In this document: one piece after another, positions 3,008 to 53,269 of the stretch
Numbering within the stretch: position 1 is the first letter of the stretch
How the letters are laid out: every line of letters begins with the position of its first letter
DNA from: Sphagnum compactum
Taxonomy: Eukaryota
Direction: 5' to 3'
Assembly (NCBI GenBank): GCA_965153455.1
Contig: OZ234493.1
Span: forward strand, 34,276,213-34,340,212
DNA: 64,000 nt
The notes under the pieces: generated by a model
Database searches by the model: none
What the model saw: the letters and a program-made list of their open reading frames with translations, nothing else
What the model was told of the DNA's origin: nothing
Position numbers and translations under genes: made by a program

Positions 3008-6000
3008 ATGTTTCATGATTTGAAACGCCCTGTGACCATCCATTCCATGGAAGGCCAGAATAAGAAGTTCGTTAGGTACTCATTGCGACCCTCGCTAGCA
3101 TCAGCCGTCCCCTCTTTTGAATTTTGGAGGAGTATTCGTGCTCATCTTGTTTGTTTCTTCTTATTTTGCTTCTTCTTCTCCTGTTTGGGTTTTTTCTTGT
3201 TTCTTCTTCTTCTCCTGTTAGGTTTTTTCTTGTTCTTTCTTCTTCTCCTGGTGTTAGGTTTTTTTCCCAAATTTGCAGCCAAGGAATTTTTTTTCCTTGT
3301 TTTGTGATCCTGATCCTCCTTTGCTGGCTGATAATAGCAGGTTTTTCAACGAGTATGACTCGGAGAGATCATTAGGGTCTGAAAGTGAGTCAAGGAAACC
3401 ACTTCGTGTGGAAAGATTGGAAAGTTCGTCATCCTCAGTCTTCCAATGGGGATGGCAGAAGGGCTCAAGAGGGCTTAGGAGTGTAGGGAGATCATTATGC
3501 CTTGGTCCTTCAAGGGTTTACTCAGAGGATTTTGATGGTGGATCCCAGATCAAGATACTCGATCCACGCAGCCGATTTTGCCAACAGTGGAACAAGTTTT
3601 TTGTTCTCTCGTGTTTAGTTGCTATTTTCGTAGATCCCCTCTTCTATTACCTTCCAGTTGTTGATACTTCACAAGATGTTGATGGTGTTGGAACATGCAT
3701 CAGAATCTCCAGGAAACTGGCTATATCAGTAACGGTCTTTCGCACCACCACCGATTTTCTCTACTTGATTCACATGGCTCTTCAATTCCGCACAGCATTC
3801 ATTGCACCTTCCTCTCGGGTATTTGGCCGAGGCGTGCTTGTGGTGGATCCCCATCAAATTGCTATTCGGTACTTGAAGAAGGATTTTTGGCTGGACTTTG
3901 TGGCCCTACTACCTCTTCCCCAGGTACTACTACACAATGACTTTTGACTTTAGGAGAGCAGTTTTTCTATTCTAGAGAGGGTTGGGGTTGATGGGCGTTT
4001 ATAATTTCCATGTGATTGACTGAGGCCCGAGTTTACATGTCCTCTAACCCTGTCAAATCATTCATTGGGTGTTGGAATGCAGCTGGTTATATGGATCATT
4101 ACACCGAGAATGGTTGGCAAAACTGCAGTTGCCACCAAGAACATTCTAGGCTTCATTGTCTTTTTCCAGTATCTTCCCCGCCTGTTTCGAATCTTCCCTT
4201 TGACATCTCAAATGGTTAGGAATACAGGGGTACTGCTGGAAACTGCTTGGGCAGGTGCTGCGTTTAATTTACTCCTGTATTTACTTGCCAGCCATGTAAG
4301 TCCTCTTCTGTTCTCTCACCCATTTCCCGGGTAGACATGAGTCATAAAAAATCACAGAAATTGTATGATGGAGAAATTGGTACATACAGGATGACAGACT
4401 CATCGTCTCACAGCATCCTACCTGCAGGTAGTAGGAGCATGCTGGTACTTGCTGGCAGTTGATCGCCAAGTCACATGCTGGAAGAATTTATGCCCAAACG
4501 AGGCCAATTGTACCGATGCATTCTTTGATTGTAGTTCACTTCATCCATCATATCCTCTTGCTGCTAATCGGACAAGTTGGATGAGCATTACAAATATCAG
4601 CACTAATTGTGATACAGCCAACAACAACAACTACTTCAACTTCGGTATCTATGTCGATGCTCTTAATTATGGCATAACGACATCATCCATAGAGTTCATG
4701 GAGAAGTACTTTTATTGTGTGTGGGTGGGTTTGTTGAGCTTGAGGTGAGTAGTACCTTGCCATTTCTTAGTAGAGCAGCTGTTGCTATAATTGATTGAGC
4801 TAGTTTTCATGCTTTGGAGTGTTGCCTTTGCCATCAGCAGGTGATTGGTTGATCAGTCTTCAATTTCTGACTTTGGTGTTATTTGGGCTCAATTGTCTCT
4901 GCAGTTCCCTGACACAAACCTGGTCAGTGAGCACCTATATATGGGAAATCATCTTCACTATCTGTATCATCATTGTGGGCTTGCTCCTCTTTGCCTTCCT
5001 TATTGGGAATATGCAGGTGAGCTACCAATCTCTGTCAGTTTCATTTTGCATGATGTTTTCTTTTTAGGGAGCTGTTACTTTTGCATTGTGACTGTAATGT
5101 ACGTACCAAGTTTGGACAGACTTGTGAAAGGAAAAAAGAGATTGCCTACTGGAGGGAGTCACCCACATGTTGCTGACAGAGCACCATGAATGTGGTTTGC
5201 TGTTGTTTGCTAGACGTATCTACAATCTCTTACACTGAGGCTTGAAGAGATGAGAGTAAAAAGACGTGACACTGAGCAGTGGATGAAGCATCGACAACTA
5301 CCCCGTGAGATAGTGGAGCGTGTCCGGCGTTTTGACCAGTACAAGTGGGTGGCAACCCGGGGAGTAGATGAAGAGGTCCTTGTGCAGAGCCTCCCATTGG
5401 ATCTTCGGCGAGATATTAAACGCCATCTGTGTTTGGATCTTGTCCGACGGGTATGCTTGATTTCTTTTGGTGGTTGTTATGGTTATGGCACTCTAGTTCT
5501 CATCTTGGTGTCCCCTCCCCAGGGCATTTTCTCTATCTGGTTTCCTCAATTTTGCTTGTTGGAGTACTTATGGGACCATGTTTTGTGTGTCCTTGTATTG
5601 TTCAGGTTCCATTGTTTGATCAAATGGATGACAGTCTCTTGGATGCTATGTGTGAGCGGTTAAAGCCTGCTCTCAACACAGAGGGCACATACATAGTCCG
5701 TGAGGGAGATCCAGTGAATGAAATGCTGTTCATCATCAGGGGCAAATTGGAGAGTGCAACAACAAATGGTGGTCGTACTGGCTTTTTGAATGTTGGGAAT
5801 CTTGGACCAGGAGATTTCTGTGGAGAGGAGCTGCTTACATGGGCTCTTGATCCCAAGCCTAGCAGTAATCTTCCTACCTCGACTCGTACAGTGAAGGCAT
5901 TGGTGGAGGTGGAAGCCTTTGCGCTGTTTGCTGAGGATCTCAAGTTTGTGGCCAGTCAGTTCCGGCGCTTGCATAGCAAGCAATTGCAGCATACGTTCAG

Positions 6001-6537
6001 GTTTCTGCTTTTGATCTCTCCATTTGTGGACCTTGTTAAGCTTTCACATTTCCAATCTGGGTAAGATAAGGGCAGTCTCTATTGTGGAGACTGTTGAGAG
6101 ACTGCCTGCCTTGCATTTAGAATGTTGAGTTCCTGATATAAAGCTACCCCATTTACTCATCATTCTTTATCACCCATGTCAAAGATGCAAGCTGCCTTAT
6201 TCTTCCATCATAACTGGTTGTTTTCTTTTGCTGCAGGTACTATTCACATCAGTGGCGCACTTGGGCAGCATGCTTTGTCCAGGCTGCATGGCGACGCTAC
6301 TGCAGACGCAAGATTGCAGAGCTGCGGCGCAAGGAAGAAGACCTGAATCTGCAGGCAGCAATTGCTGGGGCTGATGCAATGCTTACCAAGCCAAGCCTTG
6401 GAGCCACATTAATGGCTCATCGCTTTGCCTCAAATGCAATGCAAGGAGTTCAAAGGCTACGGACCATGCATGCAGCAGAGATGACACGCATATCCAACAT
6501 TCCTAAGCCCACTGAACCTGATTTCTCTCTTGAGTAG
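3008..6537 (+). CDS. CNGC: Cyclic nucleotide-gated ion channel (plant CNGC, group I-III-like), 8 exons, ~741 aa
   Basis: Exons 3008-3075, 3341-3923, 4083-4295, 4428-4744, 4905-5016, 5214-5450, 5606-6000 and 6237-6537; all introns GT-AG and the frame is preserved. Motifs: KFVRF, ILDPRS..QQWNKFF, DPLFYYLP, QYLPRL, ETAWAGAAFNLLLYLLASHVVGACWYLL, LIGNMQTYLQSL, phosphate-binding cassette GDFCGEELLTWALDP..LPTSTRTV, IQ motif FVQAAWRRY, C-terminal KPTEPDFS. Confidence 0.96.
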
Positions 6538-7466
6538 GTGGGCTCTTGATCTATCAGGGTTTGTAAGATATGGTCTCAATAACTTGCTGCAAAACCAATC
6601 CACAGACTGTGATCAGAGTTGTCTGGCCCGTCAAAATACTTATGAGTTGTTTGGTATGGGTGAGGAATTGGAAAAAAAGTTAGGAGGAAGTTTCCTTGAT
6701 GAGTTGTTCAGTATGTGTGAGAACTTGGGAAAAAAGTTAGAGGAGGAAGTTTCCTTCTCCTTGCAAATGGGAATCACCCAGCATTTTAGGCAGTAAGACT
6801 GCATTAAGTCCTGTTGAGGCCAGGGATCAGACTGGGAGTAAGTGACCATTGTTTCAGGTGTGTGGTACAGAGTAGCACTGGATAGAAATACAAATTCAGA
6901 GAGCATGCTAAACTATTGACTGAGATACTGTATTGAAAATTAATGTCATGAAGTCCAAAGGTATTCATTACCCGTTTCTCATTGCCCTACACACTTACTA
7001 CACTGCCGATTTTCATGGTGGGGTTACAGGGGCTCTGATAGAACCTTTTTCATCTCCTCTTGCATTTCAAGATTTGGTTCAGCAACGATGTTCACATCTC
7101 TTCTGTTTGGGTCACCAAAGATTGAGAAAGGAGAGTTTGTGTACAATGAACTAATTGTGCTCATGTTTTGGAGGTTCTCACAGAAATGCAGGTGGTTCCC
7201 TTGTTACAACTTGGAGAATTGTGTATGGAAGTGAAGGGTTAGATGGACCACTGTACTCCACCTGTGTTTCTCTGTACAAATAAACTTCTCACATTTACCA
7301 AATTTCATGCAAATTGAATAGTCCATATGCTTTTGGGATTGTTGTTTGAAGAAGGCAAACTCTTTAGGAACAGAGTCCACTTGTTGGACAACTGCAAGCT
7401 ATAGAGCTGTGGTTCTCAAGGCCATGCTGCTCGGGCTGGTACTTGCATGCCAAGGCTTCAAGGCTT

Positions 7467-7813: not shown

Positions 7814-8445
7814 GTTTCCAGTTTCTTGAACAAACATTTTGAGTGATCTTCTTTGAAACATTTTGTGTGCTTGATCCAGTTTGGCTACCTGACGATTTTG
7901 TACTCTTTTCTCCCTCCCTGGCCTGCATACCACTCCACCTGAGTCTAGAAGCAGAGATTGATGATGAAAGGTGGGCCAGTATTGTGTGTTGTAGGAGGGT
8001 ACTAAGCTCTAGGTTTTCTGTCAAGGTGATCCTTAGCAACTCTTTAACTATTTCAATCTCAAATTGCTATTGGGAGAGAATAGTTAGGGAGTTGTTGGTT
8101 GCTACTTCAATGGAGTGAAAAATGGTTTTATCATTGCAGCTCAGCTTATGGAGGTCAGAGCTGTTATCATATATTCACGCTGTCTATTTCACTTGTGAAT
8201 CCTAAAGCCCTAAAACTGAAAATTCTGTACTGCAGGATTGTGCCATCTCTGGAAGGAAATGGAAAGACTCCCAATGTGCTAAATCCTGTGTCCCTAATCG
8301 GGACCTTTGGGGAAGCAAGAAGCCAAGTAAGAGAATCCCACCTCTTTCCCATTGTTCATGGCTGGCAGTGCAGAAGGTTGGTGATCAGTTGGCAAGGAGT
8401 TGAAACCCTAATTTGTTACTCTGGCTGCTAACGGTGATGCAATTT

Positions 8446-8582
8446 GTTGTTGTTATTGTTGTTCCATTGGCTAGCAGTTCTGCATTCACAATATGCAACT
8501 CATGAGCTTGCAAGTTGTTGTTTTTATTGTTGCTCCATTGGCTAGCAGTTCTGCATTCACAATATGCAACTCATGAGCTTGC
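8446..8582. repeat. Tandem duplication, ~68 bp x2
   Basis: TCCATTGGCTAGCAGTTCTGCATTCACAATATGCAACTCATGAGCTTGC is present twice in tandem. Confidence 0.9.
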
Positions 8583-8879
8583 TGGCGGTGATGGATCTCA
8601 GGGTCACCAGAACTGGTCGTAGTTGGCAATATGTGCTTGAGCTCATCCAATTGAAGAAGCCGTGTATTCAATGTCTCTTCAGGCTCTACTACTTGCTCTT
8701 CCTGCAACACAAATTCGACAGCAACATATTTGTTGGTGTATTCTTAAGCACTGCTGTGTGAGTTCAATTGCAAAAGATGGGTTTGGTTGGTGAGGAACAT
8801 GGTGCATGTAGGGTGGGTATACGGATCAGGAAAATAGGTCCTCGTTCAAAATGCTCACTTACAACAACCACAAACGGCA

Positions 8880-17869: not shown

Positions 17870-19031
17870 TTAACACTGCCATTTGCTGGTAGGAACACAG
17901 TTGAGGTAATGGCACCAGGAGCAGTTCTTGCTGGCATTGATTCCCGTGAAGAGAGTGGCACAAGCTGCTGCATACAAACCAACTAGCAGAATCACAGATG
18001 CAACCATGCAAACAATCTGGTACACTTTGTACTTTCTGTTGATGATCATGGCCACAACGTCTGCATGATCAACAACAGTTCCAGCTCCTCCTCCTCCGCC
18101 TCCTAAGTATGGAAGCAGCTGATGATGATGATGATCTGAACCACCAGCCTTGTCGTTATTCTTCTTCTTCTTCTTGTACCCCTTGTGCACGCGCATGAGA
18201 ACCGCAAACCCCAACAGGAATCCAGCTAAGAACCCACCACTGTGTGCGAAATTGTCGACGAATGGCATCAAACCTAACGCGAGATTGATGAACAGAAGCA
18301 AGAGCAGTGTGACCAACGACGCGCACTTGCTGCTGTTCTCATGGTGAGACCAGTTTGTGAGAAGCTCGGCAAGAGTTGCACCTAATAACCCAAAGAGTGC
18401 ACCTGATGCACCCACCGAGACTTGATCCTCCTCCAGGAACAGCGCAGAAAGCAAACTGCCTCCGATTCCTGACAAGAGATAAATGAGTCCGATCCTCAGA
18501 GCTCCGAACTCCATCTCCATGCGAATACCCACGAGGAGAAGAGCGAGGATGTGAGCAAGTAAGTGGAAGAGACCTGCGTGCAACCAGATGCAAGTCACGA
18601 GACGCCATGCCTGGTGATGGTGTGGTTGTTGTTGCGAGATGACTAAACTTCGCTGCAACCCGCCCATCTTGTCACGGAGCGTCACGGCAGATGGACCCAG
18701 CAGCGGATTCTCGTGCCAGGGTTGGAAGGAGAATCTGTGCAACCACGGGAGGATGCAAGACTTCTTCTGGAGCTGCTGCTCAGCGCTTTGTACTGGGCAA
18801 TTGTTGTAGTACATGGTGACGATGAAGACAGCGATGTTGGCAATTATGAGAATGGAGACGAGGAAAGGAATGTGTTTCCTCCGACGACTCCGCTTTTGTT
18901 CTGAGCTTGCTGCTGGCTGTAGCGGACTCATCGTGTGAGGCGGTGATGGTTCGAAGTTGTATTGCCCGTGTGCATTCTTCCTGCCCTTGAATGGCGAGCT
19001 GCCGCCATCACGCGGGCTCAGATCCACTGGC

Positions 19032-19033
<2 letters not shown>
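17870..19033 (-). CDS. RBL: Rhomboid-like intramembrane serine protease (secretase type, RBL1-7-like), intronless CDS, ~387 aa
   Basis: Single ORF from ATG 19033 (MPVDLSPR). Motifs: NIAVFIVTMYYNNCP, RFSFQPWHENPLLGPS, WRLVTCIWLHAG, catalytic SVGASGALFGLLG, VDNFAHSGGF (catalytic His) and C-terminal CSWCHYLNCVPTSKWQC. Confidence 0.93.
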
Positions 19034-19062
<29 letters not shown>

Positions 19063-19171
19063 GGGGTGTGTGGGTGGGTGTTCTCTTCTTCTTCCAGAAT
19101 TCGACTATTGCACTAGACTTGAAACAGCTCCTTGATCCATGTGAGGCCGGAGATGAGCACACAACCCCACC

Positions 19172-19210
<39 letters not shown>

Positions 19211-19379
19211 ATCTGCTGTCAAACCGCCAAAACTCCACCATTCAAAAAACACGTCTCCAACAACCTCCTTCACCTCTACAATCCCAACTTCCACAACAAC
19301 ACCACCAGTTGCAGCAACAACAACTACAAGTTAGTAGATTGATCTGATCCTGCAGAGCACCAAAAGGGCCAGAACAAAA

Positions 19380-39613: not shown

Positions 39614-40431
39614 GGGTCGCTGCGCGCTGCCAGGGATTGCGGGCACGCGGCAAAAGAAAGAAAACAAGTTGGTGGAGAGAGGATTCGGGGGGACTGGAAC
39701 TACTTCTACTGCTGCTGCTGAGTGCGAAAGACTTAAAGAAGTGTTGAATGTTTAGACTAGAGTTACAATACAAAGGATGATGGACTCAATTGTTCCTCGA
39801 GTCTCAACAATCCCCCTAAAAGATCTATATCTCTTGAGAACTGCTAGAATTGGATTGAATTTCCAAGACCCAAAGACAGCTCTGTGTTTTTTTTTTCCTC
39901 CCCTTCACATGGTATTGGTTTTTGGGAAAAACACCTTTCAAGTTTAGAAGATTGATGTTCTTTGTTGCAAATTTTCTTCTCTCATGAATTTTTGATGATG
40001 GGGTGGTTTTAAGAAGGCTGCTCATCGACATCCAAATTGAGCATGGCATGCGTTCAACAGTTGTGATGTTGATGGTTAGAGTAACAAACTGGGAGACAAA
40101 TTTTACAAAAGAAAGAATTGTGGAGACACAGAGTTAGTTAGTTCATGCTTTGGTGGTTGTGTTACTGTTCAAAATTCAGTTGCAGCAGCTCCATGCAAGC
40201 AGCAGCAGCATTTGAGCTTGGGAAATTTGAAAGTTTTTTCATGACGCCTCCTTCTTGCAGCAAAGCATCTCTGAGCCAAACAAAAGTAGTAGAGAACCCT
40301 GGGTTTTTTTGAATACAGCAACTCAACTTGCTGGAGCAGCTCAAAGAACAATTGTGATCAACATAGATTTTAGATGTTTTTGAGATGTATTCACAATTTC
40401 AGCAGCAAGGTGCTTGAAACTAATCTGAGGT

Positions 40432-43234
40432 ATGCAGTTCAGCTCATCAAGATGGTCACCACCCACTGTAGCAGCAGCAGCAGCAGCAGCAGCATCCATG
40501 AGCTTTTGGTTTTTACTTTATGCAGCCATTGTTGTTGTTTCATGCCTCATCCCTGGCACAGAGGGCTTAGGCTCCATGACTTCCATGGCCACACCCTTCA
40601 GCAACAACTATGGACTTGAATCAGCATCAGCAGCTCCTCCAGTGTGTGGAATTCATGCCCAGAACCAGTCAATCTTCTGCTGGAACTACAACAACAACAC
40701 TTCTCTACAATTCACAGCTCGCAATTTAACTGCAGTTGCATTTTCTGGCTTGGCTGGTGGCAGAGATTTTTTCTGTGGGCTCAGAGAGTCCACTCATCAG
40801 CCTTTCTGCTGGCCTCTTCCCAATAGTAGCAGCAACAGCAATATCTCCTCATTGAAGCCCACTCGTCTGTCTCGAAACCAGTATACACAAATAGTAGTTG
40901 GAGAATTGCATGTCTGTGCTATCCAAGCCACAACTGGCTTTGTGGATTGCTGGAGGTCAAGGAGCAACAAGCAAGCAGGAGGACAACAAGGAGCTTCATC
41001 ACCTCCACCAGCGAAACCATTTGTCTCTCTTACAGCTGGTGCAAATTTCACTTGTGGGTTGGATTCAAATTGGAAGATGACATGCTGGGGCGACGGCAAT
41101 GATGGTTTCAACATCACACGTTCTGTTGATGCAGCAGCACAGGTGCAATACCAATTGATCAGTGCGGGTAGTTCCCACATGTGTGGACTTGGGAAGCTTG
41201 ATGGCAGATTGAGTTGCTGGGGGGACAATTCCTTTGGTCAAGCTTCGACAACAATGATGACAACAGCATCAAACTCCACAATTTTCTTCACAGCTCTGGC
41301 ACTTGGAAGAGCTCACAGCTGTGGATTACAAGCAGATACACGTGAGGTGGTCTGCTGGGGATCCAATTCCTTCTCACAGCTCGATTCTCCCTCGGGGGTT
41401 CAGTTTGCATCCATTGCTGCAGGGGAGGATTACACTTGTGGGGTTGAGGTTGGGAATCTTGCACTCATCTGCTGGGGCAAAGGGTTTAGCAACAACAACA
41501 CTGCAGTGAGGAGGTCTTCTCAGATTGCCTCAGCTCCCTATCCTCCTCCTCCTTTCAATGTGGAGCCAGGAATTTGTCAACCTTCGAGCTCTTGTCTCTC
41601 TGGGACTTACCCTCTCAGCTCATACTATTCCAACAACACCAGAAACAGTGTTGCGGTCTGTAATCAGCCCAACAATGCTGTCTGCATAGCTTGCAGTGGG
41701 GAGTGCCCAACAGGCTATTACGAGTCACAGAGCTGTGGCTTTCAAGGAGACCGAAAATGCACCAAGATCACAACAGAACTTCCACAGCCCAAAACCAGGA
41801 ACAGGTATGACTGGAGGGTACTAGTACCCTTGTCTGTAATTGGAGGAGTTGGAAGCCTGGCAGGCTTGCTTTCGGTCGCCTGGTGCTTCTCGAACATGCA
41901 GTGCTGCTGGATAATGAAGAGGCGTAACTCTTCTTGTCAATGCACCACACATTCAGATGAAAATAGTCTCGCTCGGGTTCACAACAGCTCAGATGTGATG
42001 GAGAATGGAGAATTGGACAAAAGGGAAGATGGCATCAATCGTCAAAGGGTGCAAAGCTTGGCATCCTCCAACAGGTCAGTTTCCAATGTTCCTCAGTGCC
42101 ATCCTCTTGAATTTCTGAGAAAAAAAAGCTGTCAACACCCATCATGTGTCTGACTGATTGATTGTTCGAATGTGCAAAAGCAGGAGCAGACGTGACCTTC
42201 TGAACAAAACAGAGATCTTTGAGTTTGACATGTTAGCTGCCATCACGGACAATTTCAGCGACACCCACAAAATTGGAGCTGGTAGCTTCGGGAAGGTGTA
42301 CAAAGCAGAGCTGCCTGATGGGAAACAAGTGGCAATCAAACGTGCCGACAAAAGTGGGAAGAAGTTGGAGGACATAGAGAGCCCATTCCAGACGGAGCTT
42401 GAAAGCCTCACCCGTGTCCACCACAAATACTTGGTGCAGTTGGTGGGCTATTGCGATGATGGTGCAGAACGAATTCTGGTGTATGATTTCATCTCCAATG
42501 GAACCTTGTGTGACCATCTTCATAATAATGGCAACAACAAAGACGACTATGAACACGACAAAACAGCTGCTTTGAACAATTGGCATGTTCGGATCAAGAT
42601 TGCATTGCAAGCTGCAAGAGGAATTGAATACCTGCACACATATGCAAACCCACCACTCATCCATCGTGACATCAAATCTTCAAACATCTTGCTGGATTCT
42701 TCATGGACGGCTCAGGTGTCAGATTTTGGGTTATCCATAATGGGTCCATCTGAGGAGATGTCACATCTGTCCATGGTTGGAGCTGGTACTCTAGGGTTCA
42801 TGGATCCTGAATACTTTCGACTCCAACATCTGACGACAAAGAGCGATGTGTATAGCTTTGGAGTGGTGTTACTGGAGCTTCTTACTGGAAAGAAGGCGAT
42901 TCACCAAGGGAATTCAGGAGTTGCAAACCTTGTGGACATAGCAGTGCCTTCGATTTTAGATTATAACTCATCGCTGCTGTCGATTCTCGATCCCAGGTTG
43001 TATGCTCCTCAAGGATTGGAGCTGGAGGCCATCTCCATGGTGGCACATGTTGCGGAGCAATGTGTGAAGCAAGAGGGCAAAGATCGACCATCCATGACAC
43101 AAGTGGTCAACCAATTGGAACGAGCTTTCGACGTCTCTAATCTGCACAAAAAATTCATCTCTGCTAAGAGTGGCTACGAGATTCAAGAAATTGATCTGCA
43201 AATGCGCGACGAGGATGCAGACCAACACCACTAA
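40432..43234 (+). CDS. CRINKLY4-family receptor-like Ser/Thr kinase (CCR3/CCR4-like kinase domain), 2 exons, ~897 aa
   Basis: Exon 1 40432-42074 (alternative ATG at 40498 just before the signal peptide); exon 2 42184-43234 (or from 42181, NAGNAG acceptor). Domains: signal peptide, crinkly/RCC1-like repeats (AGGRDFFCGL, VGELHVCAI, AGANFTCGL, AGSSHMCGL, LGRAHSCGL, AGEDYTCGV), Cys-rich TNFR-like region, transmembrane helix, and a kinase with GAGSFGKVYK, VAIKR, HRDIKSSN, DFGLS, GTLGFMDPEY and KSDVYSFGVVLLE. Confidence 0.94.
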
Positions 43235-45500: not shown

Positions 45501-47368
45501 TTATGAAATCAAATGTATGAGAATTTCCCATCTCAAATTGTGACCAAGAAATTTTGGATATGTCTACTACAAGTGGCAAGTTCATCATTTCATTGTCAAA
45601 TAATTATTTTTTATTTTATTTCAAAAATAAAAAAATTCCCAAATAACACTAAAAGCTTCTCTTTTTCCCTTCACAAACATTTTTAACTTTGAAAATTGTA
45701 TATTTAAATTGTCAATATTTCTGAAATTAATATTGTTGGTGTCAAACTTCGTTGGGATCAGCCATTAATTTTTCCCTTGCAAATTTCACACGAATGCGAA
45801 GTTCTCAAAAAGGAATACTTTGTAGCGTATTGCCTTTTTTTGAAATTGTTTTTGCCAAATTTCCCCCAAAAAAATTGAAAAAACTTCATGACATTTCTAC
45901 TTGTATTTTAGAAGGGGCCCGCCCATGTTTTGTACTAGTTTTTTAATTTTTAACTTTTTGGGTCACTTGTAGAAAACTGTTGCCATCTAATGCTAAATCT
46001 AAATAAATAAATAAACAAATAAATCCCTCTTGGGATGCTTGCATGTGACGCAACATTAGAAATTTTGCAAAATAAAATAAAATAATTAAAATAATAAAAA
46101 TACGGGCTACATTTGTGGCAATGGCTCAATAGAGCTTCTCAAATTTCTAGAATCTTATAAGTTTGGATTGATTGTTTGTTTTGCAAAAAAGAGAGGGGCA
46201 CTAAGAAGGGTGCGTCTTGGTGATGCGATTAAGTGAACTACAAGGGAGCAAAGATGCAACGGCTTTTAGAGTGTACAAAATTAGGATAAGTTGTTAAGTA
46301 ATGTACACACACAATGAGCATGAGACCATTAGTGTGTAGCCATAGTGAAATTTGCGTGTCAACACTCAAATGTTTGGTGGGTGGACTGATGGATGTTACA
46401 ATTGTTCTAAACCCTAAACCCTTAGTTATAACAACTATGAACAACCCATGGTGATGGTCATCTTTTTTTTTCCCATTAGTTTGTGGGAATTGAAGGAGGA
46501 CATATAGTTTTAAGATAGATTTAGCATTTAATTAAATGGTGAGAGGTCTTTAGAACTAGTTCCAAAAAGTGAGATTTTGCTTTGAAAAATGGCCCCAAAA
46601 TAAAATCCAAGTGAAAAAAAATTGTTGCATCTTTTATTTTAGAAAAAAAATTGGGATTTTTTACCTAAAAAATAGGGAATTTTATTTTTGTTCAAGATTG
46701 AAGAGAAAAAGGGCTAAAAAATTTAAGGAAAAAAAAAAAAAAAAACCTCTCTTCTTGCACATAGAGCACCCCAATGAAGGGCATTGAAAATTTGTTTGTT
46801 GAACTCAATGTAATCTTGGATGATATTTGGCGAGAGTTACATAGATGATGATGAAAAAAAATCCAAACATAGGTTCATTAAAAACCTTATCATCCGCATC
46901 GATAATTCACAATTTAGGATATTATAATATGGTTTTAGAGTTCTTAGCAATGAGACATGTAGCAAGAATTTGATTGGCCCATCACAAAAAAAAAAAGTTG
47001 AAACTATGGAGACTCCCCCAAAATAAAAGATTTTTCTGGAAAGATGAAGTGATGTCCCCTTTGGCCCAACTATATAGATGAGAAGGGGAGGACCTTCGGG
47101 CAAAACATATAGGATTAAAGCGAGGTGCTATTGGGAACACATTGGGAACATAGGGAACATATTGGGAACCCATTGGGAACTTGAAAGGCAAAATGAAAAA
47201 AAATCCTCCCCCCCTCTTTTGGACCTTACCTACTACCAACAAAAAAAAAAAAAAAACCAGTTTGGCAAATTGTTTTTAAATTTTTTTAAAAAACAAAAGT
47301 TGTGTTTGTAACTTTGCACACCTTCCGCGTCTCAGACACGAAAAATTTTAGTTGAGTTTCCGAACCTG

Positions 47369-47569
47369 AGGCTTGGCAATTGGCTAAGGCTCGGAAAAGG
47401 AGTGTCAGGTGGCTAAGGCACGACAGAAGGCTCGGACTCAGGCTTCGGCGAAAGGTGCGACAATGTGCAAAAGGCTCGGAATAAGGCTCGGGATCCGGTT
47501 CCGGTTCCGGTTCGGAAGAAGCCTCTGCATGTGCTTCAGGTTCGGCAAAAGGCTCGGTTCGAGGCTCGG
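47369..47569 (+). promoter_or_regulatory. Cluster of AGGCTCGG motifs in the proximal promoter of the acidic-protein gene
   Basis: Exact copies at 47387, 47428, 47472, 47484, 47550 and 47562; variants at 47369, 47440 and 47538. The role is inferred from position just upstream of the (TC)n tract and the ATG. Confidence 0.5.
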
Positions 47570-47745: not shown

Positions 47746-50700
47746 ATGCCTCCAGGTCCAAGGAAGAGGCGACGGCGGCGGCGGACAGAAAGTTCTCCAG
47801 GCTTCTCCGCCTCTGCAGGTTTCTTTCTTTGCAGATTTTGCTTGCCAATCCTGTTTTGGTTGTTGTTTTTTTTTTTGGTTGATTCTGGTTCTGTCTCTGC
47901 GTCATGTCATGCGGGTTTGGTTTCGTTCTCGAGAGCGTTTTCTCGGACTTTCTGTCGTTGTTATAATAATGGTCTCCAATTTGGTTATTACGGACGCGGA
48001 GGAGTAGGAGAAGGAGGGGGTTAGTAGTATATGCTGCTGTACTCGGGGGTTTTGTAATGTTGTCTGCGTTTTGTTCTTGTGAAGAATGCTTTCATACACT
48101 TCTTTCGGCATCTTGTTTCCTTTCTCCGTCTCTGTTGTCTTCTCCTTCTTCTTCTTCTTCTTTTTCTTCTTAGAATGGCTATTTCCTTTTGTGATTCTCG
48201 TAGTGCTTTCTTTCTTTCATGCAGGAGGTACTACACTACGGCTGCTACTAACCTCGCGTAAAACTTAGGCGAAAAACTCTTTGCTTGCCGTTGTTTTCAC
48301 TGTGCTGTAATGCTGCGCTTGCTTTGTGTACTCCCTTCCCGATGATGTTCTTGTAGCTTTGAGCTTTGCACTGGCAGAAGAAGAAGCAGCAGCAGCGTCT
48401 CCGGACGCATTGTGCAGTGGCCGTTTCCGTGCCTCGGCGTGGGGGAAAGCTGTCTGTCAAATGTGCATGTTTTGTTTTGCTCTGTAGTCTTGTCATGACA
48501 AAATTGTGCAGGCCACTGTTGGGATGCTGTTGTGTTGGTTCCACCATGGTTGACGGTGGAACGAGGAACTGGGATCGGTGTCCTTTTAGATGATGTCTTA
48601 TTAGGCGCAGATTTCTGATGTCTGACCACAAATCTTCTTCTTCATTTTGTGGGTTTTTTTGCTGTATAGGTTTTTGTTTTTTCTGTTGTTGTTGCACTAC
48701 TGATGCAATAAATTATTATTTTTGGTGTGTCCACTTCTGCTGCAGATGAATCTCACGAATCTGATGAAACCACTTCATGTCCAGACACGCCAGACCATGG
48801 GAAACGAACATTTTCATCAGAAGATGTGCCTTCTGATCAGAAGTTCCACACAGAAGACTGGGTGAGGGTTTCTGATTTTGATGTTGGCACTCCTACTTCC
48901 ACAACAACAGCTGACTCTAAGGTGGCTGACTATGGTGTTGTGGCTCTCGACTGTAATTACGATGGTGATGTCAGAGGCCATGACAAGCTTGCAGATTGGG
49001 AGACTGTGTCAAGGGACATGGGTGGTGGAATTTCTTCCACAGAAGTTGTGGAAAATTTGGAAGGTGATGATTCAGTGGTTGACGAAGAATCAGTCAGTCC
49101 TTCTCGAGGGCAAGGGCTCAATCAACTGCCTCACGTGGATGCTGAAAATTCAGAATGGTTGTCAGAAAAGCAAGATGAGCACAAGGTGGCCTCTTCATCC
49201 AGAACATCAGAAGACCTGGAGAAGATGAGCAGTTCTTTTGAAGCGGGTTCCCCAAGTAAGGAAGAGGATCAGGAAGCTGCTGCCTCTATTGTGGAATTTC
49301 CCCAAGAAAAAGTCTACTTATGTGGCAGTTCAGAAGTCACTTCTTTGCAGCAAGAGCATGATAATGAAAGACAGAAGAGTCACATGGAAGTTCATCCAGT
49401 GAAGCTCCAAGAGCAAGAAGAAGCCTGCAGTAATAATGGGAATGAATCCTTGTCTGAAGAGCAAGAGGAAGAAGATCATCATGTGACAAGTCCCAGGCAA
49501 GAGGACAGCAAGATGATTGGCCATGCTCTGGCGGAAGATAGAAGCATACAGCTGATGGATGCTGCCATATCTGGGATGTATGAGTCCAGTGACCAGAGTA
49601 CTGAAGCAGTGGATGTTGCTCCTCTTGAACCACAAGAGGACAATGTGAAAGGAATTTCTGAGCAGGAGAGTGACGAGCATGATTGGCTTCTGGACATTGC
49701 ACACTCCACAGAACTTGCTGATTTAGGGAAGGAAGAGGAGAAAATAATTGCCCAAGAGGAGGAAGATATCGGGGAGAACACTTCAGAAACTATAGTTGAA
49801 ATGCTAGCCTCTGCAGGGAACTTACCTCAGACAACAGAGCATGGTGAAGTGGAAGATTTGCAAAAGGTTGCAATTGAAGAGTCACCCTTGATTGAGGAAC
49901 ATTCTGATGCACCTGACGCCATGGTGTCTGAAGTGGCAGAACCAAGCATTAAAGCACAAGGATCTGGGCAGTTTTCTGTTTCAAATGAAGACTCTTTTGC
50001 TGATGCCATTCCGAGGGAATATGAGAACATGCGTTTGTCAGAGGATCTGTCAACGACAGCAGAAGTGGAGAAGATGTCACATCTGGACACACATGACCAA
50101 GAGCAACGAACATTGTCATTGCTGGACACACCTTCTGATAAGATATTGCAAACTGAGGAATGGGTGAAAATTTCCGATTTTGATGTTGGCACCCCAACTT
50201 CCACAACAGCTGACTCGAGGGCTGACTATGATATAGCAGCTGAGAAAAGTTATGGTGATGTCAAAGGCCATGACAAGCTTGCAGATTGGGAGACTGTGTC
50301 AAGGGACACAGTTGGAGCTTCTTCTTCCATTGAAGAAGTTGAAGAAAGTCTGGAAGGAGACCATTCAGCTCTTGACGAATCAGTCAGTTCTTGTCAAGGG
50401 CAGGCGCTTGAACTTCCTCATGTGGATAAGGGAGATCTGGAACGTTTGTCAGGCAAGGAAGATGATCATGAAAGGGTTAACCTCAGTTCTCAATCTTTGT
50501 CAGAAATATCAGAAAATAAGGAGAAGATAAGCAATTGCTCTGTGGCTGGTTCTCCAGTTAAGGAAGAGGATCAGGAAGCTGCCTCAACTTTGGAGTTTCA
50601 AGAACACAACCGAGAAAGTGGTAGTCCAGAAGTCCCTTTGCAGCCTGATTATGATAATGAAGAGGAGATCAGTAGCATGGATGTACAATCCCAGACACTC

Positions 50701-51830
50701 CAAGTGCGACAAGAACCAGAAGAAGAGCATCATGTCACAAATTCCAGACAGGATAACAACATGATACTTAGCAATTTTCTGGAGGAAGGTGAAAGCATGC
50801 AAACTGTGAATACTACCATATGTGGGGTAGACGAGTCCGGTGACCAGAGTGTTGAACCAGCAGATTATGCCCTACATGAGCCACAAGAGGACAATATGCA
50901 AGGAGTTTCTGAACAGGAGAATGATGAGCTTGTGGATATTGCACAGACCACACAACTTGCTAATTTGGGGAAGCAAGAGGAGAAAATTATTGCCCAAGAG
51001 GAGGAAGATCTTGGGAAGAACATTTTGGAACCTCTGGCCAATGTGCTAGCTTTTGCAGAGACTTCATCTGAGACATTGCAGCTTGGTGAAGTGGAAGATT
51101 TGCAAAATGTTTCAGTCGAAGAGACACCCTTGGTTCAGGACAGTTCCCTTGGTGCTGTGGTGTCTGAAGAGGCAGAGCCTTGCAGTAGAGGACGAGAATC
51201 TGCTCTTGTAGAGCAGTCTTCTGGTGCAAATGCAGATTCTTTTTCTGATGCTATTCCTGTGGAAGATGCACGTTTGCTGGAGGACCTTTCAACTGGAGGT
51301 CATACATCACAAATTGATGCACCACTGGCAGAAAAAGAGAATTATGATCTCATACAAAGCAAAACTGCAGCTGGTGCTAAATTGCCAACAAATCTTTCCA
51401 TGGCTAGAACTGATGATGCTGAACTTGGGAAAGGACTTAGCATAGGAGGATCTGGATCAAGCCCAGAGGACCTGCTGCATTACAACTCTCCCAGAAAATC
51501 TGTGGTGAGTATGTTGACCACAAGAAAAGCCTCAATTTCTGTATTGCAGCAGTTCTCTAACCAAGACTGCTATAACCTGTTGCAATCTTGAATCATAATG
51601 TGATCATGCAAGAGTTGGATGTTTGTTGTTCTTTGGTTTGGGACAGACTGTGTGGATGGATCCACTGTAAAATGGACAGGACACATTTTACTTAATTTCT
51701 GAACCATAATTCTCTCTCTCAGGAACAGGTGAGGTCTAATGAGCGCTGGGATGGGTCATCAGAGATCAGGGGATGCTGTGAGCCTGTGCATTGGATTTTG
51801 GTGCACATTTTTGGCAGGCAGATTGATTAA
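47746..51830 (+). CDS. Uncharacterised acidic, probably disordered protein (~979 aa) with a basic N-terminus, an ~400-aa internal duplication and a C-terminal GCC/hydrophobic tail
   Basis: Exons 47746-47818 (MPPGPRKRRRRRRTESSPGFSASA), 48746-51504 (E/D/S-rich long ORF) and 51723-51830 (EQVRSNERWDGSSEIRGCCEPVHWILVHIFGRQID*). GT-AG junctions are phase-consistent; total 2940 nt. Confidence 0.85.
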
Positions 51831-53269
51831 GCCTTCAGGGATCAAAGGGCCCTTAACTACCATACACATCCCTATGCAGTTCTTCATCTAAAAAGTGCAC
51901 AGGTGAGCCCCGATTCTGAGCATGAGGGCAGCAGAGACTCATGAGATCTTGGATCCAGATTGCCAGAGACTGTAGAGATTGATTGGTTCATATTTTGCCC
52001 TCATCATGTATGGTCGAGATCTAAACCAGTGGATGTTTTTTGAGGTTTTATAAATTACTGACATTGTGCAGAGTTAAAAGATGTTAAAATATTGTAGAAA
52101 AAAATACAAGTCAGATTGCTGCAGAGACACAGCTTTCACCATTTTGTTTTCATTTTTCAGGATGAAGAATCCTGTTATAGTCCTTTTGGTCATCCAGTAG
52201 TAGTAAAGGCCTCTATAACAGTCTAAATCAGGTATAGGTATACTGTTGCAAATTCAGGTACACTGACGAGGAATCAGAGACATCCTTGGTTGCAGCAATT
52301 ATGACCACCCCTGTCAATGTGAATGGTGTACAATGGTGTCCGGATGGTCTCATGCTGCAAAGGCAACACGACCATCACGGCATCATACACTCTCTTCACT
52401 TGTATTTTCTGGATATAATCTACCACACGTAGTATAGTCATCAGTAAGATACTTTTTTAAAATTAATTTGACTAAAAGATGTTTTAGTTGAATATATTGC
52501 CCAACTGTATATGTGTATGATTAGAAGTGACATATATTAGATTCATTCATATACTTGATTACATAATAAGAACTTAATATGTATTATGTATCTTCCATGT
52601 TACTATTGTTATCATGAAACAGATGTAAAATGATAAGTATATTGATGTGTGATACTATTATGGATCTAAGATTACATATTTTCAAAAATATGCTTCACTT
52701 TTGTACATTTTCTTTCATGTGATTGAATTTTTTCCACGTGTTACTTTTCATCATCCATGTTATCAATTTTAATTGGTGTTTTCGTTTTAATTCCTGTTAT
52801 TGTTTTCATCGATATGGTATGGTTCATTTTTGTCATCAGTTTAGTCCAAATGTTTAGATTTTACCTCAAAATCAATTTCATTTTTTGAAGTTCATTTCTT
52901 CCAAATTGTTGAAATTCATTTGTGTAATCTGTTTTCACCCATATGACCATTGGCAATTGTGTGTTCAAATTCATCTATCATCAAATTTGATTACCTAGTA
53001 TTGCCAATTGCTTCGTGGATTTGATCATGGTTCATCCATTTATGTTATTTAAGGACCTAGACTTCTGGGAGCTTAGTTTTTTCAGGGATGGGGTCTGGAC
53101 TAGGGCTTTTTGGCATCATCAAGGTTTGAACATTGTTTTAGGGTTCAGCTTTGGATCATGAACTTGTAGGGTTTTAGGGCTTGGGTAGGTTGTAGGGTTA
53201 GGGTATGGACACTCTTAAAACCTAAGGTGCACATCCACCCCTTAGCATTAAGGGTGCACATCAAATCAT

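Follow-up and report, generated by a model that had tools for sequence, protein, structure and literature searches.

A stretch of 64,000 nucleotides from Sphagnum compactum (assembly GCA_965153455.1, contig OZ234493.1, positions 34,276,213 to 34,340,212, forward strand; referred to here as the window) carries at 47746–51830 a gene for an acidic protein. This protein had been predicted, from the DNA letters alone, to be a candidate autophagy receptor or membrane tether with duplicated ATG8-interacting-like and FFAT-like motifs and a di-Cys tail. The gene is real, is expressed and has three exons, and its product is, by sequence comparison, a Sphagnum member of an unnamed moss and liverwort family that stands outside any named family. 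Four elements persist from liverworts to mosses: a basic MP(S/P)G start, two tryptophan blocks, A and B, and a G-C-C tail. The observation behind the original prediction is confirmed and its receptor or tether interpretation is partly supported. Our preferred reading, held tentatively and at somewhat less than an even chance, is that of a disordered arm, anchored to a membrane by S-acylation, which displays ATG8 (perhaps also ATG11) motifs in tandem.

Results and discussion

The coding exons lie on the plus strand, as do all features of the gene described below, at 47746–47818, 48746–51504 and 51723–51830. Re-translation of the joined exons gave 979 residues with a single terminal stop, and the coordinates and gene model proposed earlier all checked out. 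Exon 1 encodes an MP(P/S)G start and a polybasic stretch (MPPGPRKRRRRRR), exon 2 the long acidic body, predicted by FoldIndex to be disordered, and exon 3 the tail GCCEPVHWILVHIF with its Cys pair at 51774–51779. Both introns are GT..AG: intron 1 (47819–48745, 927 nt) is in phase 1 and intron 2 (51505–51722, 218 nt) in phase 0. The splicing of the first and last exons to the long one was borne out by public RNA, the intron 1 joint being present in 7 raw reads with 4 starts and the intron 2 joint in 17 raw reads with 9 starts. Both joints are also found in contigs of three other runs, for which two studies on related mosses show identical tables and are possibly not independent. Of 415 reads from a poly(A) library, 312 were at least 99% identical to the locus; almost all first mates were minus-strand, which is what a plus-strand transcript should give. 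The intron 2 joint was shifted by one base in 14 further reads, which are probably paralogue reads or an alignment ambiguity. Three raw reads show an optional GT..AG intron of 355 nt in the 3′ untranslated region (window 51903–52257).

Homologues were found in mosses (Ceratodon KC19_8G181300, two Physcomitrium genes and several unnamed proteins) and in liverworts (Marchantia Mp1g28680, Riccia sorocarpa, R. fluitans and Calypogeia). Two unnamed proteins were assigned to liverworts, and several to mosses, by tree alone. An annotated Sphagnum protein of 978 residues shares both termini and, over exon 2, shows 94% identity; in the family as a whole the body length ranges from under 400 to 979 residues. 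No vascular-plant or hornwort homologue was named among 15 matches, 19 (unfiltered profile search), 9, and 9 from 342 candidates (search with the N-terminal 125 residues); three of these searches were word- and length-limited, members without the Trp blocks would be invisible to them, and several unnamed matches were placed by tree. The family's gene and protein identifiers and motif strings gave no match in the main texts of the literature, supplements not being covered.

The source genome has two more intact-looking paralogues (paralogues 2 and 3) on a different contig; each carries the arm once and ends in the same exon. It also has the 3′ relic of a paralogue-3-like gene (locus positions 7890–8667; contig C3, about 5768890–5769670), in which the end of the long exon is apparently out of frame and is followed by an intact-looking GCCEPV last exon. 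The relic begins about 130 nt past the stop of a long pentatricopeptide-repeat-like frame, and neither the N-terminus nor the Trp blocks were found in the 7.9 kb upstream of it. Upstream of the window gene, within 400 nt of the ATG, are clustered 9 of the window's 10 GG(C/T)TCGG sites (window 47366–47569). Likewise 8 of the 9 such sites at the paralogue-3 locus (locus positions 6151–6549) lie just 5′ of the start; paralogue 2 has one. The cluster is possibly a shared promoter element or the remnant of a small repeat.

The two tryptophan blocks each occur twice in the Sphagnum protein. Copy 1 of block A (TEDWVRVSDFDVGTP, 48850–48894) contains the core WVRV (48859), which is of the ATG8-interacting motif (AIM), GABARAP-interacting motif and FIP200-interacting region (FIR) type and is followed by an extended conserved tail; copy 2 (TEEWVKISDFDVGTP, 50152–50196) has WVKI (50161). 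Block B (HDKLADWETVSRD) is identical in its two copies, at 48979–49017 and 50269–50307, and contains the AIM-type core WETV (48997 and 50287). The W..V/I core of block A is kept in 20/20 homologues and that of block B in 19/20, so that the W-x-x-V motifs are indeed conserved islands across mosses and liverworts, as had been proposed. Four other AIM-like cores in the protein were rejected as motifs, being kept in only 4, 7, 0 and 1 of the 20. The family consensus of block A is T-E/D-E/D-W-V-R-V-S-D-F-D-V-G-T-P-T-S, near-invariant over about 17 residues (T at −3, E at −1, W at 0, R at +2, V at +3, S at +4, F at +6, V at +8, T at +10, P at +11 and S at +13). A central 10-column window on the Marchantia protein has a mean identity of 0.97, against 0.42 overall (22 sequences). 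Block B, with the consensus L-A-D/E-W-E-T/S-V, follows 37–55 residues downstream. A Physcomitrium isoform is annotated (A0A7I4CB21) that skips from the end of block A to beyond block B, removing the second Trp motif.

Plant ATG8s are GABARAP-like. According to PMC7615515 the AIM core (also called the LC3-interacting region, LIR) is an aromatic residue followed by x-x-L/I/V with an acid at −1 to −3, the GABARAP-type core is (W/F)-(V/I)-x-V, and a consensus for the FIP200 claw (FIR) is also defined; Arg at +2 is reported to have made one motif GABARAP-selective and an acid at +7 to raise affinity. Judged by these definitions, block A has the AIM core, the GABARAP-type core, Arg at +2, D/E at +7 and the FIP200-claw consensus, and block B has the AIM core and an acid at −1. 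Acidic or Ser/Thr flanks occupy −1 to −3, with T-E-D/E ahead of block A and D at −1 of block B. From the protein's own composition, the chance that two conserved Trp residues would both have an acid at −1 and L/I/V at +3 is about 0.002–0.005. The fit to the motif definitions together with the conservation marks both as candidate ATG8-interacting motifs, the binding being putative. At least ten ATG8-family loci were seen in the source genome, on nine contigs, several with a last intron that lacks an in-frame stop.

Several points weigh against this assignment. Because blocks A and B were the main route by which homologues were detected, the conservation of the blocks is partly circular, and members without them would have been missed. 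WVRV fails the xLIR pattern. The block B core can be lost: of 78 block-B matches among the proteins retrieved (another pattern match fell outside block B and is excluded), 5 have WETA and 1 has WETM, and paralogue 2 also has WETA. In 2000 shuffles of the protein W/F/Y-x-x-L/I/V cores numbered 5.6 ± 2.1 against 8 observed, which is no enrichment. For W-x-x-L/I/V the figures were 1.4 ± 1.0 and 5, four of the five being the two motifs duplicated. As there is no overall enrichment and the excess consists of duplicates, motif counts within the protein prove little, and the conservation across species is the real signal. No cargo-binding module is evident: Pfam recognised no family in the three exons or in any of 11/11 aligned members. 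A peptide-competition ATG8 interactome that covers Marchantia and Physcomitrium (bioRxiv 10.1101/2024.09.08.611708) does not mention Mp1g28680 in its main text, which names few genes. The conservation of block A, finally, extends far past the four-residue AIM core and beyond what ATG8 needs, which makes a larger, different partner a serious rival.

On this alternative the same anchored arm would use its Trp blocks to bind a non-ATG8 trafficking partner, such as the ATG11 claw alone, a coat or adaptor domain reading Trp-acidic motifs, or an exocyst-linked factor, and would act as a vesicle-capture or coat-recruiting tether. We regard it as rather unlikely, though deserving real weight. Domains of the delta-COP or AP-2 type read Trp-acidic motifs, and the W-x5-F spacing of block A would fit a di-aromatic acidic motif; the invariance reaches R+2, S+4, F+6, V+8 and T-P, and its alternation suggests a longer beta-strand interface. 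Block B, however, is a plain D/E-W-E-T/S-V that is well accounted for as an AIM, and a sequence search of the Protein Data Bank (PDB) found nothing below E 0.9 (best 0.9–1.2), so that no solved structure resembles the protein or its blocks. An exocyst link is hinted at by MpSec6 immunoprecipitation–mass spectrometry, in which Mp1g28680 has a log fold change of 2.6 with p 0.036 (PMC12626893 supplement). The spectra were 11, 2 and 1, against 1, 0 and 0 for GFP (supplement files 3 and 4), so the signal comes from one replicate (adjusted p 0.52), and Exo84 and Exo70III gave 0, 0, 0. With this adjusted p the co-purification was rejected as real support. The spectra, the sole experimental trace that came to light, show that the protein is made; so weak an enrichment does not identify a partner.

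The di-Cys tail of the prediction also stood. In 14/14 full-length family proteins G-C-C is followed by V/M-x-x-W-L/I/F, 14–24 residues from the C-terminus, and the same exon 3 is present in both genomic paralogues. Family entries without this tail stop at the exon 2 donor, the gene caller having run on into the intron. In Sphagnum magellanicum, CY35_08G021900 has an annotated second isoform with another last exon and no Cys-Cys tail, which, if real, would be a soluble form. Of the 969 11-mers of the 979-residue protein, the one after the Cys pair ranks third by hydrophobicity. A transmembrane anchor was rejected because no 19-residue window exceeds a Kyte–Doolittle mean of 0.71; the maxima of 12 of 13 homologues are 0.26–0.69, and the thirteenth reaches 1.29 only inside an extension ahead of its probable start. 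CaaX prenylation was rejected too, since 16 residues follow the Cys pair here and 11–21 in the homologues. Paired cysteines next to a short hydrophobic stretch are an established S-acylation pattern, and RIN4 and the remorins are plant proteins anchored through C-terminal S-acylated cysteines. Like the present family, these are disordered, have their cysteines by a short hydrophobic stretch and lack a transmembrane helix; they differ in having no homology to the family, whose own acylation is putative. The Cys pair of exon 3 with its hydrophobic or amphipathic segment is probably an S-acylated membrane anchor. At the other terminus, the start MP(S/P)G-x-(R/K)-K-R common to moss and liverwort homologues may be a patch for anionic lipids or a nuclear localisation signal.

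Between these termini the protein is rich in E (14.3%), S (12.6%) and D (8.9%), as had been noted, with a net charge of −155. Prediction of disorder, a check that had been proposed, gave a negative FoldIndex in 92% of 51-residue windows; the region of the blocks is itself near zero, where local order is possible. The ESM Atlas model of the Calypogeia orthologue has a mean pLDDT of 0.38 and a pTM of 0.10, and the acidic body is predicted to be disordered. The ESM Atlas gave no named cluster by features, and structure matches reached a query TM of at most 0.23.

Such a composition could belong to a general acidic disordered protein (an ion buffer, stress protectant or nuclear acidic chaperone), in which the basic N-terminus would be a nuclear signal and the Trp motifs turnover tags. 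The charge, the extent of predicted disorder, the P-R/K-K-R-rich N-termini of the homologues and the wide range of body lengths are consistent with this. It is nevertheless improbable, for the di-Cys hydrophobic tail, kept on its own exon from liverworts to mosses, would not be needed by a soluble nuclear protein, and near-invariant motifs stand in an acidic body that is itself poorly conserved.

The FFAT/VAP27 arm of the prediction was not borne out. The canonical FFAT motif is E-F-F-D-A-x-E in PMC7610837. SFADAIP (49993–50013) and SFSDAIP (51238–51258) were scored with an approximate matrix based on Table EV4 of PMC7705450 and not with the published conventional one. They score about 2 and 3 respectively, with F/Y at position 2, D/E at 4, A/C at 5 and an acidic flank; the best score of SFADAIP was equalled by 12/100 shuffles. 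The F-x-D-A core is kept in 1/20 homologues for copy 1 and 0/20 for copy 2, and is missing even from the Sphagnum paralogues. Elsewhere in the family the best conventional scores are 2.5–5 at scattered positions, at least 8/100 shuffles beating each of them, and two Riccia proteins have phospho-type scores of 2 (2/100 and 4/100 shuffles) at non-equivalent sites. FFAT was accordingly rejected as a family feature on the poor conservation of its core, its score being not clearly above chance.

Like the FFAT-motif VAP clients described in PMC7610837 and PMC7705450, the Sphagnum protein has, within a disordered region, one F-x-D-A core flanked by acidic residues; it differs from them in that this core is unconserved in its family and not clearly above chance. 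An ER–plasma-membrane tether, in which the FFAT-like motif would bind the MSP domain of VAP while the acylated tail held the other membrane, is very improbable. In its favour are the F2, D4 and A5 of SFADAIP and the keeping of the motif in both repeats and in close Sphagnum orthologues, and a VAP contact peculiar to Sphagnum is possible; the near-absence of the core from the 20 homologues, the shuffles and the scattered scores of other members argue against it.

The doubling of these motifs stems from a tandem duplication of about 1.25–1.30 kb within exon 2 (direct repeats spaced 1236–1302 nt). Its copies, with approximate ends, lie at 48775–50076 (about 430 residues) and 50077–51300, and are 55% identical as protein (222/402 columns). 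Of the blocks first picked out as best kept between the repeats, HDKLADWETVSRD is the sole 13/13 window and DVGTPTSTTTADS has 12/13; DSFADAIP is lower (9/13), and EEKIIAQEEED, which was overlooked, is kept equally well at 12/13. A fifth conserved block, C (LLEIAHSKE...EEKILA; copy 1 LLDIAHSTELADLGKEEEKIIAQEEEDIG, 49687–49773; copy 2, 50929–51015), is kept in mosses only, is unrecognisable in liverworts and is probably helical.

In a quick tree both repeats cluster with paralogue 2 with full support, so that the duplication, on the quick tree only, arose within Sphagnum and is limited to this gene lineage. Every other orthologue examined has one motif pair, and a family-wide design with four motifs was rejected. 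The multivalence by duplication that had been proposed would be a Sphagnum peculiarity.

On the preferred reading of an anchored ATG8-binding arm, then, the C-terminal end would fix a peripheral membrane protein, with the Cys pair S-acylated and the hydrophobic segment behind it in the bilayer, most likely of the plasma membrane or a post-Golgi compartment. The acidic arm, predicted to be disordered over several hundred residues, would extend from this anchor into the cytosol and display near its far end two Trp motifs that are some 40 residues from each other. One of these at least would dock into the two hydrophobic pockets of lipidated ATG8, as motif fit and conservation suggest, and block A, which also fits the ATG11/FIP200-claw consensus, may engage that domain as well. 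The protein would act much as a membrane-bound selective-autophagy receptor or an ATG8 tether of the TEX264/CCPG1/Atg39/ATI type does, any cargo being putative, except that a reversible lipid anchor would replace the transmembrane helix. In the Sphagnum copy the motif-bearing arm would be doubled to give four motifs.

There are precedents for such an arrangement. According to PMC9126229, known membrane receptors have their LIR where a long disordered arm ends, far from the anchor; in CCPG1 and Atg39 a motif for ATG8 and one for FIP200/Atg11 occur together near the N-terminus, a pairing that resembles that of blocks A and B. TEX264, CCPG1, yeast Atg39 and plant ATI1/ATI2 are alike in having an anchor at one end of a disordered arm and the LIR/AIM at the other. 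They differ in being transmembrane proteins, whereas the moss and liverwort family lacks a transmembrane helix and probably has a lipid anchor instead; sequence homology to them was not found (no Pfam match), and ATG8 binding by the present family is putative. Bryophyte-restricted AIM proteins and synergistic tandem AIMs also have precedent in bioRxiv 10.1101/2024.09.08.611708. CESAR, MpVWA41/43, MpYHBC and MpRING1/2, reported there, are likewise uncharacterised bryophyte proteins with AIMs; unlike the present family, in which none was recognised, they have folded domains (CUE/ELKS, VWA, RimP and RING).

A link to angiosperms is a lead only. Liverwort members start MPSGPKKR... and end S-G-C-C-G-V-I/L-x-W-L-L (e.g. 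SGCCGVIYWLL), and paralogue 3 of the source genome starts MPSGLRKRKAAAA. These termini resemble those of the uncharacterised angiosperm proteins named in the original prediction, which reportedly begin MPSGAKKRK and end in a CCGL-type motif. In the ESM Atlas the clusters nearest to the Calypogeia protein are unnamed Streptophyta clusters of 289–450 residues (0.93, 0.90 and 0.90), a level of 0.9 being reached by shuffled proteins in 4–10 of 100. This is a language-model hint, to which no named vascular-plant match corresponds.

Of the neighbouring genes in the window, that upstream (40429–43231, plus strand) consists of two long frames of 574 and 358 residues a few bases apart. The former reads as a signal-peptide-bearing extracellular part and the latter as a protein kinase domain, which suggests a receptor-like kinase with a small intron or break. 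A frame at 3258–6061 (plus strand) resembles a cyclic-nucleotide-gated channel, and one of 486 residues lies at 17873–19330 (minus strand).

Conclusions

Few membrane-bound plant autophagy receptors are known, and those in the cited reviews are integral membrane proteins. The present family, in which no more than three or four short elements are conserved, is a clear-cut candidate. In its boldest form, which we consider unlikely, the proposal is of a plant selective-autophagy receptor family that has a reversible S-acylation anchor where others have a transmembrane helix, and an extended, near-invariant dual ATG8/ATG11 motif. Through acylation, bryophytes would turn on and off the removal of plasma-membrane or post-Golgi domains by autophagy, or their ATG8-dependent repair; in vascular plants the anchor and the basic N-terminus may persist, the Trp blocks having been lost. 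Marchantia, from which a single orthologue was retrieved (Mp1g28680), has ATG8 tools and atg mutants. If the partner of block A is not ATG8, a 17-residue motif that is near-invariant across mosses and liverworts would represent a new linear motif and a new partner.

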